A stretch of DNA of 64,000 nt from Promethearchaeati archaeon SRVP18_Atabeyarchaeia-1 (lineage in GTDB: Archaea; Asgardarchaeota; Atabeyarchaeia; Atabeyarchaeales; Atabeyarchaeaceae), in assembly GCA_037308085.1 (NCBI GenBank), contig CP147779.1:2208001-2272000 (forward strand). The letters are read 5' to 3'. Position 1 is the first letter of the stretch. Each line of letters opens with the position of its first letter. Positions 51,385-54,671 of this stretch are shown here, in pieces. A model generated the notes under the pieces. The model made no database searches. It was not told where the DNA came from and saw only the letters and a program-made list of their open reading frames with translations. The translations under genes and the position numbers were made by a program.

Positions 51385-52047
51385 GTGCAAGAGGGCACTA
51401 AGAGGTTGTACTGGGAGGATCCTTACAGGAGGAGTTTTGAGGCTCAAATCATCTCGAACGTGGGGAGGGAGGTTGTGCTCAGCCAGACCTGTTTCTATCC
51501 TAGGGGTGGAGGTCAGGTCAGCGACAGTGGCATAATAGAGTCAGCGAGAGTCACTGACGTAGTAGATCGGAAAGATGGAACGATCGCCCACATCTTGGAG
51601 AGCTCTCTGCAAGCCAGGACGGGGGATATAGTTAGGGGGGAAATAGACTGGGAGAAGCGCTATAGCACTATGAAGCTGCATTCAGCCTCGCACCTTCTCT
51701 ACTATGTTATGCAGGAAGTCTTCGGAGTTGAAGCCACACCCGCGTCGTCGGGGCTAGTGGACGAGAAGAAGGATAGAACTGACTACCTCTTCAGCACATC
51801 ACTCGACCAAGAGAAACTGAAGGAAGCTGAGAGAAGGGTCAACAACATCATTAAGGAAGCGCGCGAGGTTAGAACTTGGAACGATCCGAGCCGAGATGGA
51901 AAAAGAATGTGGGAACTGAAGCCCTACCCAGTCATGATGTGCGGGGGAACACATGTGAGAAATACAATGGAGATAGGCGAGGTATCAGTAACGCGAGGAA
52001 AGAAGCCCGGGCGCGGAAAGGAGAGAATTGAGATAACTCTAATGTAG
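51385..52047 (+). CDS. alaX: AlaX alanyl-tRNA editing protein
   Basis: FYPRGGGQVSD, HSASH, CGGTH. Confidence 0.9.
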   Translation: MQEGTKRLYWEDPYRRSFEAQIISNVGREVVLSQTCFYPRGGGQVSDSGIIESARVTDVVDRKDGTIAHILESSLQARTGDIVRGEIDWEKRYSTMKLHSASHLLYYVMQEVFGVEATPASSGLVDEKKDRTDYLFSTSLDQEKLKEAERRVNNIIKEAREVRTWNDPSRDGKRMWELKPYPVMMCGGTHVRNTMEIGEVSVTRGKKPGRGKERIEITLM

Positions 52048-52084
52048 TGGCAAAGAAGGTCTACAGGGAGATCTGATACGCGTC

Positions 52085-52951
52085 TCAGAATCGTTCTATC
52101 CAGCTCTGCTTACCGCCGTTGCCAGAGTACCCGAAGAATCGCTCAGCAACTAGGCGTGTAGTCTCGGGTTCAATAATCTTGTCGTTGAGCTTGCTTGGCG
52201 AGAGAGACGACGCGTTGCTAAATATGGTCAGGATCTTGGCCTTTGCGTAGTCGATTTGGCCCTGTTCGATTCTGCGCGCCAGCTCTTTGGAAAATTCTGT
52301 TGACTCAGTTCCGAGGACACTGGAATTGACCATATCGACAATCGCGCCCAGCTGCCCACCGTCCATTTCGGATTCTACTTCTCCGATCAGGCTCAAGGGC
52401 AGTCCCACTAGGTTTCCTTCTTCGTGAACCGAGTTGCACCACAGAGTCAAACCAAAGCATCCTCGAAAGTCTCGCGGAATGAGGTTAGTCATGAATGCGA
52501 TCATGTTCCTTACTTGCCAGTCTTCGCCTACAACCATGACCTTCTTTCCCCCCACGAGCGATTGTAGGGCTGAATCGAATTTCCCTGGAATCCGCACGCG
52601 GGGAACAGCAAACGGTCCTGGCTCGTCTTCGTATTCGCGCACAAAGTCGCCGTCCAAGCCATCCTTGACAGACTCCCTAAGAAGCCCTTCATATTGGAAG
52701 AGGTCAACATCTCTCCTATCAGTAAAGATAAAGGCGCAACCGAAGCCTGAGTCGACTGACATCTTGTAGTAGGAGACCGCCGTGCCCGTTTCTCCAACCG
52801 GAAACGACTTCAAGACTTCGTCGGGTGGGAGCCCCAAAGGCAGAGACTTGAGTGAGAGCAGTTTCTTGATATGAGGAGAAAGAACACCATTACTAGCTAT
52901 GATTTCTACGCCGCTCTTGCGATTGAATGACAGGAAGGTTCTTATCATCAT
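52085..52951 (-). CDS. Hypothetical protein, DENN-like
   Basis: ALQSLVGGKKVMVVGE..V..MIAFMTNLIP resembles the cDENN core; N-terminal longin-like alpha/beta pattern. Confidence 0.5.
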   Translation of the reverse strand: MMIRTFLSFNRKSGVEIIASNGVLSPHIKKLLSLKSLPLGLPPDEVLKSFPVGETGTAVSYYKMSVDSGFGCAFIFTDRRDVDLFQYEGLLRESVKDGLDGDFVREYEDEPGPFAVPRVRIPGKFDSALQSLVGGKKVMVVGEDWQVRNMIAFMTNLIPRDFRGCFGLTLWCNSVHEEGNLVGLPLSLIGEVESEMDGGQLGAIVDMVNSSVLGTESTEFSKELARRIEQGQIDYAKAKILTIFSNASSLSPSKLNDKIIEPETTRLVAERFFGYSGNGGKQSWIERF

Positions 52952-53012
52952 AGCCTGCCCACCCCCGAAATGATCGCCCCTGTCTACTGTAGAGATCTGG
53001 TCCCCTCACGTT

Positions 53013-53768
53013 TCACTTTGCAGTCTTTGGCATTATGCCCAATCTGACTTGAAGCCATACCGGCATGCTGAAACCGACATAGAACACGACCAGCGATGGG
53101 ATTGCCACAAATGGCACCTCAAATATGCCGAGGAAAACCCAGAACTCCGGCGACAAGCCAAGGATGTAGAACTGCCCCCCTTGTACAAGAAGTGTAGACA
53201 CCGACTCCGCAATGATCCACAGTGACAGCGGAATTCCTATCAGCCTCGCCCTAACCTTATGAAAGAGCTTAGTGCTTTTCCTGCCACTCATCAGCATGCT
53301 TGCTGATATGATGAGGGCTATCAGAGGAGTCAAAGCAGCGGCGAAAAGAGCCTCAGTGTTCCATACCAGTGGCCACCCGGGAATAACCTGGTACCCATAG
53401 TAGAAGCCAGACACCTCCGCGAGGACCCACCACGCAGCCACGCCAATCTTAGCTGGTATGGCGTACTTGCCTCTAGTCCTGCTGAGGTTCAGCGCGAAGA
53501 GAGTCAACAGAGCAACACATGTAAAAGCTGAAATCAGCCGACCGAACATGTATACTGGCGCTACTGCAAAGAGCAAACCGAACACTTTGCAGGCGTAGTA
53601 TGCCGTGCCAATCGCAAAGAATCCCACAAAATAGAACGTCAGTCTCTCATTCATAAGCTTCCTAAGCTTCACAACCGAGTAGACTGTCAGAACTGACGAA
53701 AGTATCAGGACAGGGATACTGACTTCAAATTCAAGGAGATCGAATTCAGTGCCAAAAGGCAATCCCAC
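53013..53768 (-). CDS. Seven-transmembrane protein
   Basis: 251 aa, seven hydrophobic segments by eye, C-terminal YVGFSMPVWL. Confidence 0.75.
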   Translation of the reverse strand: MGLPFGTEFDLLEFEVSIPVLILSSVLTVYSVVKLRKLMNERLTFYFVGFFAIGTAYYACKVFGLLFAVAPVYMFGRLISAFTCVALLTLFALNLSRTRGKYAIPAKIGVAAWWVLAEVSGFYYGYQVIPGWPLVWNTEALFAAALTPLIALIISASMLMSGRKSTKLFHKVRARLIGIPLSLWIIAESVSTLLVQGGQFYILGLSPEFWVFLGIFEVPFVAIPSLVVFYVGFSMPVWLQVRLGIMPKTAK

Positions 53769-53792
53769 TCCACACCCCCAAGCTAAGGCTTC

Positions 53793-54383
53793 TCACTTCT
53801 GCTCCCGCACCTTGTCAACGAGGTATTCGAAGGCCTCTTTGAGTCCATCACCGTACATTCCGCTGGTTTTGACCACGTGCACGCTGTGCCCCTTCAACAG
53901 ATTGTCGACTCCATAACTCTCAAGAATCTCCTCCTCGGTCATTGGGTTCTTGTCCCGCAAGTCCTGCTTATTCGCCATTACCAGGACTGGAATTCCGTCA
54001 TTTAACAGACTTACTGCATATTCGAAGATCTTCCTGTTCTCTGCAATGTTGGCGCGGTCAGTTGCGTCCACCACGAAGATGACTCCTCCAGGGGACTGTC
54101 TGACCCCAAGTTCCCAGAATACCTGGCGGTATACTTGTTGGCCTCCGACGTCGCATGCTATGAAGTTCCATCCCTCAAACTCAAAGTTCTCGAAGTCGAT
54201 CCCGTGTGTTGGTCTGATCTGCATTTGATGCCCGTCTTCCAAGACAACCTTTCCGCTTGCGGGAGGTTGTCCCGTTTTCATGTAATAGAGCATTGTTGTC
54301 TTTCCGGCCCCACCGGGACCCAACAGGCATATTTTGATCCTCTTCTTCGATCGAAACAGGTTCTTGACCCACCCCGGCGGCAT
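53793..54383 (-). CDS. Arf-like small GTPase
   Basis: G1 GPGGAGKTT, G2 PT.G, G3 DVGGQ, G4 NKQD, G5 TSG; N-terminal amphipathic WVKNLF. Confidence 0.92.
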   Translation of the reverse strand: MPPGWVKNLFRSKKRIKICLLGPGGAGKTTMLYYMKTGQPPASGKVVLEDGHQMQIRPTHGIDFENFEFEGWNFIACDVGGQQVYRQVFWELGVRQSPGGVIFVVDATDRANIAENRKIFEYAVSLLNDGIPVLVMANKQDLRDKNPMTEEEILESYGVDNLLKGHSVHVVKTSGMYGDGLKEAFEYLVDKVREQK

Positions 54384-54671
54384 CGACTACCACCTCTTGC
54401 TGATTTCACATGACTCTTATCACTGCTTTTATCCTTGTGGAAAACTCGGCACAAAAGTCAGCCGAAGCTACGATATTCGCAAGCAGTCAAGACCATGCTG
54501 ATGAGTTAGAGGACGAAAGTCTTGTAGGGAACAAAATCTGCAATCAGCTTCGCTATCGTCAGGTTTGACTTCTCTCTCGCCCGAGTCGGCTATACTGGCA
54601 AAGATGTTGCCCATGAAGGTGAGCCAAATACCAATGCCGCTAGCCCCAACCAGAAAAGACACGGATCTCGC

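Follow-up and report, generated by a model that had tools for sequence, protein, structure and literature searches.

The window analysed here is a stretch of 64,000 nucleotides from the Asgard archaeon Promethearchaeati archaeon SRVP18_Atabeyarchaeia-1 (contig CP147779.1, positions 2,208,001 to 2,272,000), whose genome is a single contig of 2.81 Mb. Within it, three adjoining genes encode an Arf-family small GTPase, a stand-alone seven-helix membrane protein and a compact protein that, in its predicted structure, combines a longin and a DENN domain, with 735 residues in the three proteins together. Based on the predicted folds, the helix count and the recurrence of the genes as a cassette in other Asgard genomes, we consider it likely that this trio works in Asgard archaea as a small-GTPase switch docked at the membrane.

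The locus and its gene products

According to the open reading frames (ORFs) of the window, all three genes lie on the minus strand, and the co-oriented arrangement with gaps of 24 and 61 nt described in the initial annotation agrees with the ORF coordinates (Table 1). The layout fits one operon: a Shine-Dalgarno-like motif precedes every start codon, little space separates the genes, and a TATA-like box is found ahead of the first of them. On direct reading, both spacers are GC-rich and a TATA-like box is present in neither. The upstream neighbour is an amidase gene in the same orientation, 288 nt off, and the downstream neighbour is a convergent AlaX-like gene. A 64-aa ORF on the minus strand (54468-54662) takes up much of those 288 nt between the amidase and GTPase genes but is probably no gene. 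Near-identical operon DNA occurs in seven DNA sequencing runs that belong to two studies, on sediments of wetland and freshwater sites; no RNA run is among them. Three results point to the Asgard phylum (Promethearchaeota in the NCBI taxonomy) as the source: the Candidatus Hodarchaeota name of one DENN-family homologue, the Promethearchaeota origin of the nearest ESM Atlas clusters, and the presence of the gene families in genomes of that phylum.

Table 1. Features of the three-gene locus, in positions of the window.
Feature	Position	Strand	Basis or remark
Putative promoter and 5' leader of the operon	54384..54440	minus	Direct sequence reading
TATA-like ATAAAA	54427-54432	minus	About 47 nt upstream of the GTPase ATG
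Shine-Dalgarno-like GAGGTGGT	54389-54396	minus	5 nt upstream of the GTPase ATG
Arf-family small GTPase, 196 aa	53793..54383	minus	Pfam Arf
Spacer, 24 nt	53769..53792	minus	Shine-Dalgarno-like GGGGGTG at 53773-53779, 4 nt upstream of the start codon GTG
Stand-alone seven-helix membrane protein, 251 aa	53013..53768	minus	Hydropathy; predicted N-out/C-in
Alternative start of the seven-helix gene, TTG	53762		Would give 249 aa
Spacer, 61 nt	52952..53012	minus	Shine-Dalgarno-like GGGGGTG at 52960-52966, 8 nt before the ATG
Compact longin + DENN protein, 288 aa	52085..52951	minus	AlphaFold model, Foldseek, VIA-align

The first gene encodes, by its sequence matches, a member of the Arf family. The protein matches Pfam Arf (PF00025) with E 1.1e-27 and 97.1 bits, where the curated cut-off is 22.3, and the match spans positions 5-173 of the 174 in the profile; the closest solved structures are eukaryotic Arf1 (E 1.5e-19), followed by the Asgard Arf GTPases 8oun and 8oul. 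Motif reading bears out the intact G1-G5 set and the Arf-type DVGGQ/NKQD that had been reported for it, that is, G1 GPGGAGKT, G2 T59, G3 DVGGQ with the catalytic Gln, and G4 NKQD, all four of which are invariant in 12 GTPases compared from cassettes of this kind (cassette GTPases), while G5 is TSG in the window GTPase and SAK in the orthologues. The window GTPase is about 40% identical to the cassette GTPases of other lineages, and its switch I has an 11-residue insertion relative to the orthologues. The N-terminus carries a hydrophobic-then-basic stretch (PGWVKNLFRSKKR in the window, with the family consensus MSWLxRLFxRK), and Gly2 is not present in the window GTPase, which begins MPPG. The amphipathic helix proposed for this end is plausible from the short hydrophobic-then-basic stretch, but its helical moment of 0.76 is only moderate, as 5% of shuffles reach that value, and the moment is weaker in several orthologues. 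The Pfam G-alpha profile gave 27.5 bits against a cut-off of 48.8 and covered the P-loop only; the 196-aa protein has no G-alpha helical domain, and the operon contains no beta or gamma genes. About 26 ORFs of the host genome match the small-GTPase profile at E <=1e-3, which is a large set of paralogues for a 2.8-Mb archaeal genome.

The third gene product has no Pfam match at E <=1 and no NCBIfam match, the 21 members of its family have no Pfam family in common, and the family profile found nothing meaningful among PDB sequences. A word-indexed search of 5.8 billion proteins returned one relative, 48% identical, besides the query, and an exhaustive HMMER search found 20 relatives of about 300 aa; one homologue of the DENN family is named at its source as a Candidatus Hodarchaeota protein, and the closest homologues (P0002, P0004 and P0005) are 39-48% identical. 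With the resulting 21-sequence alignment, AlphaFold gave a model with a predicted local distance difference test (pLDDT) value of 89.7 and a predicted template modelling (pTM) score of 0.89, compared with a pLDDT of only 33 from a two-sequence alignment. Foldseek placed DENND1A and DENND1B with Rab35 at the top of the PDB matches of this model (E 1.4e-8, probability 1.00), with DENND10, folliculin, FNIP2, C9orf72 and SMCR8 among the lower ones. In VIA-align the model matches DENND10 with Z 12.6 over 259 residues and DENND1A with Z 12.1 over 262. Residues 1-114, approximately, are modelled as a longin domain (strand-strand-helix-strand-strand-strand-helix) and match longin domains, one of them Lokiarchaeal at Z 9.1, and residues of about 115-284 as an alpha/beta DENN core with a helical tail, which matches the folliculin DENN domain with Z 9.4 and a root-mean-square deviation of 3.2. 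Based on these whole-length and domain-wise matches, the protein is, in its predicted structure, a compact longin + DENN module. The DENN fold of the initial annotation thus stands in the model, although it had been described as a cDENN-like core only and is in fact part of a whole longin + DENN module. R11, P38, G40, G142 and P159 are each conserved in at least 90% of 28 family sequences. Like DENND1A/B with Rab35 and DENND10, the window protein has a longin domain, an alpha/beta core and a helical tail over its whole length; unlike them, it is about 90 residues shorter, shares only 8-12% identity with them, and has an Arf-type rather than a Rab GTPase as neighbour.

Eukaryotic DENN and longin-DENN proteins regulate Rab, Arf and Rag GTPases (solved complexes 3tw8, 6ekk, 7mge and 6nzd). 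The DENN fold has the role of guanine nucleotide exchange factor (GEF) in DENND1 on Rab35, and that of GTPase-activating protein (GAP) in C9orf72-SMCR8 on Arf (7mge) and FLCN-FNIP on Rag (6nzd); Avl9 is a monomeric DENN GAP on Arf (preprint 10.64898/2026.01.05.697756). Could the trio then be an off-switch, in which the DENN protein is a GAP for the GTPase with Arg11 as catalytic residue, and the seven-helix protein only recruits the GAP to the membrane? The GTPase would suit a GAP, having the catalytic Gln of DVGGQ and no conserved switch I arginine of its own. R11 is present in 27 of the 28 family members, in the loop preceding longin strand 2, which is the site of the GP motif of GAP-type longins (PMC12290439), and FLCN, FNIP2, SMCR8 and C9orf72, all longin-DENN GAP subunits, are among the fold matches. 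As the trio would, C9orf72-SMCR8 on Arf1 (7mge), FLCN-FNIP2 on RagC (6nzd) and Avl9 join a DENN-fold regulator to an Arf-family GTPase at a membrane, and the window family also has a conserved longin arginine. However, the former two are heterodimers of two longin-DENN proteins, whereas the trio has a single such gene, and the conserved arginine of the window family lies between strands 1 and 2, whereas the Avl9-type arginine finger sits between strands 4 and 5 (preprint 10.64898/2026.01.05.697756), where the window family has no conserved Arg and the window turn reads VDSGFG. In addition, the GP dipeptide is not conserved (G14-V15 in the window, R-x-x-G-[A/V/P] in the family, with Pro rare), and over the full length DENND10 and the GEF DENND1A match best. 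A membrane protein in the role of recruiter has a parallel in eukaryotes, since the C9orf72 complex is recruited by PQLC2, a protein of the lysosomal membrane. Taken together, an off-switch of this kind is a serious candidate with the balance tilted against it. For the switch as a whole, we would place a GEF role of the DENN protein first, short of an even chance, a GAP role a close second, and a role as adaptor or effector third; this ranking is our own.

The product of the middle gene has no Pfam or NCBIfam match, 10 members of its family likewise have none, and the word-indexed search of the 5.8 billion proteins returned the query alone. In other Asgard genomes, the seven-helix proteins encoded next to DENN genes belong to a single family; its averaged hydropathy displays exactly seven hydrophobic segments, which establishes the seven-helix topology at the family level as far as hydropathy can. 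The mean numbers of lysine and arginine residues per sequence in the successive loops of the family are 0.8, 4.1, 1.0, 5.2, 0.7, 4.6, 0.6 and 5.5; since these alternate across the loops in the positive-inside manner, the predicted topology is N-out/C-in, and the loops of the window protein agree with the same pattern. The helix count, the stand-alone form without a kinase domain and the basic loop between helices 5 and 6, all read from the window at the outset, are confirmed. The loop (GRKSTKLFHKVRAR) is cytoplasmic and among the two best conserved elements of the family, and the C-terminal motif of the window protein is FYVGFSMPVWLQVRLGIMP. Motifs common to the window protein and the family are [A/S][S/T]KLxxKxRxxL directly after helix 5 and the C-terminal FYxxFxxPxWxxxRxGxxP. 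An hhalign comparison of the window protein with the cassette-linked family gave E 5.3e-5 and a probability of 67% over residues 157-250. Based on this profile alignment and the two shared motifs, the window protein is likely to be homologous to the cassette family, with the similarity weak in the N-terminal half. The conserved residues of the family are all cytoplasmic, which is what a docking face would show.

These features also bear on a receptor-coupled reading, in which the seven-helix protein senses a signal from outside or from the membrane and alters its conformation, and the DENN protein, as a GEF, loads GTP onto the Arf-type GTPase, in the manner of a G protein-coupled receptor (GPCR). 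GPCRs contact G proteins at the loop between helices 5 and 6, that is, at the element that is so well conserved here, and seven helices with N-out/C-in topology are as such a reading would have them. The ESM Atlas model of the protein resembles, with template modelling scores (TM-scores) of 0.69-0.75, Promethearchaeota proteins of 237-253 aa that stand alone, bacterial proteins with HisKA_7TM, which serves histidine kinases as a membrane sensor domain (PMC5847659), and eukaryotic GPR180. The outward parts differ between lineages, as diversifying sensors do, and DENND1-type DENN modules are GEFs (3tw8, 6ekk). On the other side, the helices and outer loops of the family contain no conserved polar or pocket residue, a conserved ligand-binding feature was not found, and no Pfam seven-helix family matches. 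The confidence of the Atlas model is middling (pTM 0.66), and monomeric DENN proteins acting on Arf are reported as GAPs, not GEFs (preprint 10.64898/2026.01.05.697756). Receptor coupling in this full sense therefore appears unlikely to us. HisKA_7TM (PF16927) itself has seven helices and a similar predicted fold, but the window protein has no Pfam sequence match to it, lacks a kinase, GGDEF or HD output domain, and is linked to a GTPase gene.

Linkage of the three genes in Asgard genomes

Is the neighbourhood of the three genes kept elsewhere? In a survey set of 400 genomes of the phylum of the window, the DENN-family profile matches 59 genomes and the profile of the seven-helix family 23, mostly in the same GTDB families. 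Twenty-four DENN-family loci from other genomes were examined (23 stretches, one with two DENN-family genes). The DENN gene adjoins a gene of the seven-helix family in 14 of these 24 loci, and an Arf-like GTPase gene is in the same cluster in 11 of the 14, while the other three end at contig edges; the cluster GTPases match the window GTPase at E 1e-30 to 1e-40. The cassette loci span five GTDB families besides that of the window, and the genes often overlap by a few bases. With G for GTPase, D for DENN and T for the seven-helix gene, the orders elsewhere are G-D-T, D-T-G and T-D-G, and the order G-T-D of the window is a fourth. That the trio is kept through such rearrangement argues for selection on the linkage.

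As an independent test, profiles built from other lineages only were run on the genome of the window, with its 6290 ORFs of 80 aa or longer. The GTPase profile gave 155 bits for the window GTPase and 47.7 for the next paralogue, the DENN profile had the third gene as its sole match (E 2e-20), and the profile of the seven-helix family had the middle gene as its sole match at E <=1 (E 0.0035). By our own estimate, the three profiles would meet by chance in one 2.3-kb stretch of a 2.8-Mb genome less than once in a million. A maximum-likelihood tree unites the window GTPase with all cassette GTPases, and with the second copies near them, in one clade (support 95/95); all 10 paralogues sampled from the genome of the window lie outside this clade, and the window GTPase is the sole member of the cassette subfamily in its genome. 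The linkage that a functional module would call for is conserved and holds in five other GTDB families. Searches for related loci among genome contigs and metagenome contigs found none, and a single-protein search of 40 relatives had no match for the DENN protein; for the seven-helix protein it gave three fragments at chance level (E 0.01-0.07) and no true relative.

The closest relatives present a different picture. G001, of the same genus, and G002, of the same family, keep the AlaX-like gene and the amidase gene with 70-74% nucleotide identity, and at the site of the trio they have a 174-aa gene in about 640 bp, compared with the 2.6-kb trio segment of the window; no remnant of the trio was found at the syntenic site of either. 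Since the trio is absent as a whole, it was gained or lost as one block, and one gain is more parsimonious than two losses. The substitute gene (L103:2947-3471 in G001 and L104:865-1458 in G002, where it is called with 197 aa) is helical-repeat-like and conserved in both; the genome of the window has no orthologue of it and only weak paralogues.

On another reading, the three genes lie side by side but share no function, or the cassette is mobile and accessory, for example a defence system, instead of a unit of cellular signalling or trafficking. The absence of the trio at the same site of the two nearest genomes is in keeping with this, and so is the great rarity of close homologues among the 5.8 billion proteins (two for the DENN protein including the query, and the query alone for the seven-helix protein). 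However, the linkage is held in five other families despite rearrangement, none of the defence families of PADLOC matches the trio, and no integrase, transposase or other mobility gene and no significant flanking repeats were found at the trio. We consider this explanation very improbable. Recent horizontal transfer was likewise considered and left no signature, as the GC content of the trio and its GC content at third codon positions are like those of the flanking genes. A 12-nt direct repeat matching at 11 of 12 positions (TAGTGGCAAAGA at 52045-52056 and TACTGGCAAAGA at 54593-54604) flanks the trio, close to where the segment absent from the relatives ends on either side; it was rejected as an insertion scar, being at chance level, with about nine such matches expected by chance in 2.9 kb on our own estimate.

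Some further arrangements were observed around the cassette genes. One branch of the DENN family (L040, L045, L052, L054 and L055) is without link to a seven-helix or GTPase gene, and its usual neighbour is a gene of about 370-380 aa of unknown family. Three seven-helix genes lie near a gene for a cassette-subfamily GTPase with no DENN gene, adjacent in L089:1196-2746 and L093:618-2120, and one gene apart in L096:1-2175. There are hints that the pair of seven-helix protein and GTPase may itself be a functional link. In three Asgard families, a fourth conserved gene of about 350 aa follows the trio, which has the order T-D-G in L037 and L038 (L037:6514-7563, L038:5130-6218, L036:2516-3568, L047:2859-3950 and L009:1797-2691); it has no Pfam match, and the C-terminal half of its product is weakly Arf/Arl-like (E 0.03-0.45 against PDB sequences). 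The seven-helix gene is followed, in two further Asgard families, by a conserved neighbour of 250-275 aa with an N-terminal CxxC and conserved His residues (L043:10595-11422, L053:3398-4159, L088:4322-5077 and L048:5349-5740). Neither the fourth gene nor the CxxC family was found in the genome of the window.

A candidate GTPase switch at the membrane

The membrane-docked switch that we favour would work as follows. The seven-helix protein would lie in the membrane, N-terminus outward, and two of its conserved cytoplasmic elements, the basic loop that follows helix 5 and the P-x-W...R-x-G-x-x-P tail at the C-terminus, would form the surface for docking. The longin-DENN protein would bind the Arf-type GTPase and set its nucleotide state, while the GTPase would cycle between a cytosolic and a membrane-bound form via its N-terminal stretch and hand its state on to effectors. 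A unit of GTPase, regulator and membrane protein is well supported, and the conserved gene linkage is an indication that the DENN protein may regulate the cassette GTPase. The signalling or trafficking unit of the initial annotation, which had been likened to GPCR-G protein coupling, thus stands as a GTPase-regulator-membrane unit by fold, helix count and linkage, but the parts that would make it GPCR-like, namely a G-alpha-type GTPase and a ligand-binding feature, do not. As an analogy, the GPCR-G protein system is possible.

Several points weigh against the switch. Linkage is not obligate, as partners are missing at 10 DENN-family and nine seven-helix-family loci, and the absence of the trio from the two closest genomes makes it dispensable for the lineage. 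The DENN class rests on predicted structure, with no Pfam DENN model matching. Between the window seven-helix protein and the linked family the similarity is weak (14-18% identity besides the hhalign probability of 67%), and the family-profile search of the genomes at E 0.001 missed it. The operon is a prediction from the layout, and physical contact among the three proteins is something we infer. A three-chain complex prediction, with the DENN protein, the GTPase and the seven-helix protein as partner, scored 0.19 against a mark of 0.32 and decides neither way.

How does the trio compare with published systems? Asgard DENN proteins are already known, together with an operon in which genes for a LAMTOR1-like Roadblock protein and a Rab-like GTPase accompany a DENN gene (Liu et al., preprint 10.1101/2020.10.19.343400). 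Like the trio, that operon is an Asgard cluster of a small GTPase and a DENN-fold protein, proposed as a GTPase regulator module; the trio differs in having no Roadblock protein, an Arf-type instead of a Rab-like GTPase, a seven-helix protein as third member, and a minimal DENN protein of 288 aa that lies below Pfam detection. The Asgard Arf-related GTPases ArfR and AArf have been published as well (preprint 10.1101/2024.02.28.582541; PMC11914678). The window GTPase is of the same kind by its Arf-type motifs and its likeness to 8oun and 8oul, but belongs to a subfamily defined by linkage to seven-helix and DENN genes. Another comparable system is that of the actinobacterial conservons CvnA-D, long likened to G-protein-coupled signalling, which are also operons of a membrane sensor, a small Ras-superfamily GTPase and a longin-type regulator (PMC13621833, PMC13343842). 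However, they consist of a histidine-kinase-like sensor, an MglA/Ras-like GTPase, a Roadblock regulator and a GEF-like protein, none of which families is present in the trio.

In the literature searched, no paper on a cassette of seven-helix protein, Arf and DENN was found, which is not proof of absence. As Asgard DENN proteins and Arf-like GTPases have both been published, the link to a seven-helix gene would be the new element. To this the window contributes a minimal form of just three genes, the fourth gene order, a lineage in which neither of the two closest genomes searched has the cassette, and the evidence for gain or loss as one block. Asgard GTPases of the Arf type are able to bind to membranes and to respond to regulators from eukaryotes, and Zhu et al. 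noted that their native regulators were unidentified (PMC11914678); the trio is a small, testable set of candidate native partners for one Arf subfamily. A bolder proposal, which we rate as having only a small chance of being right, is that a dedicated Asgard seven-helix receptor controls an Arf-family GTPase via a minimal DENN protein, as a self-contained, horizontally movable unit and a forerunner of the eukaryotic endomembrane axes of membrane protein, DENN and Arf/Rag. If true, it would be the first prokaryotic seven-helix protein coupled to a Ras-superfamily G protein. If the three proteins do cooperate, the pairing of DENN and Arf at a membrane would be older than eukaryotes, which would bear on the origin of endomembrane signalling.

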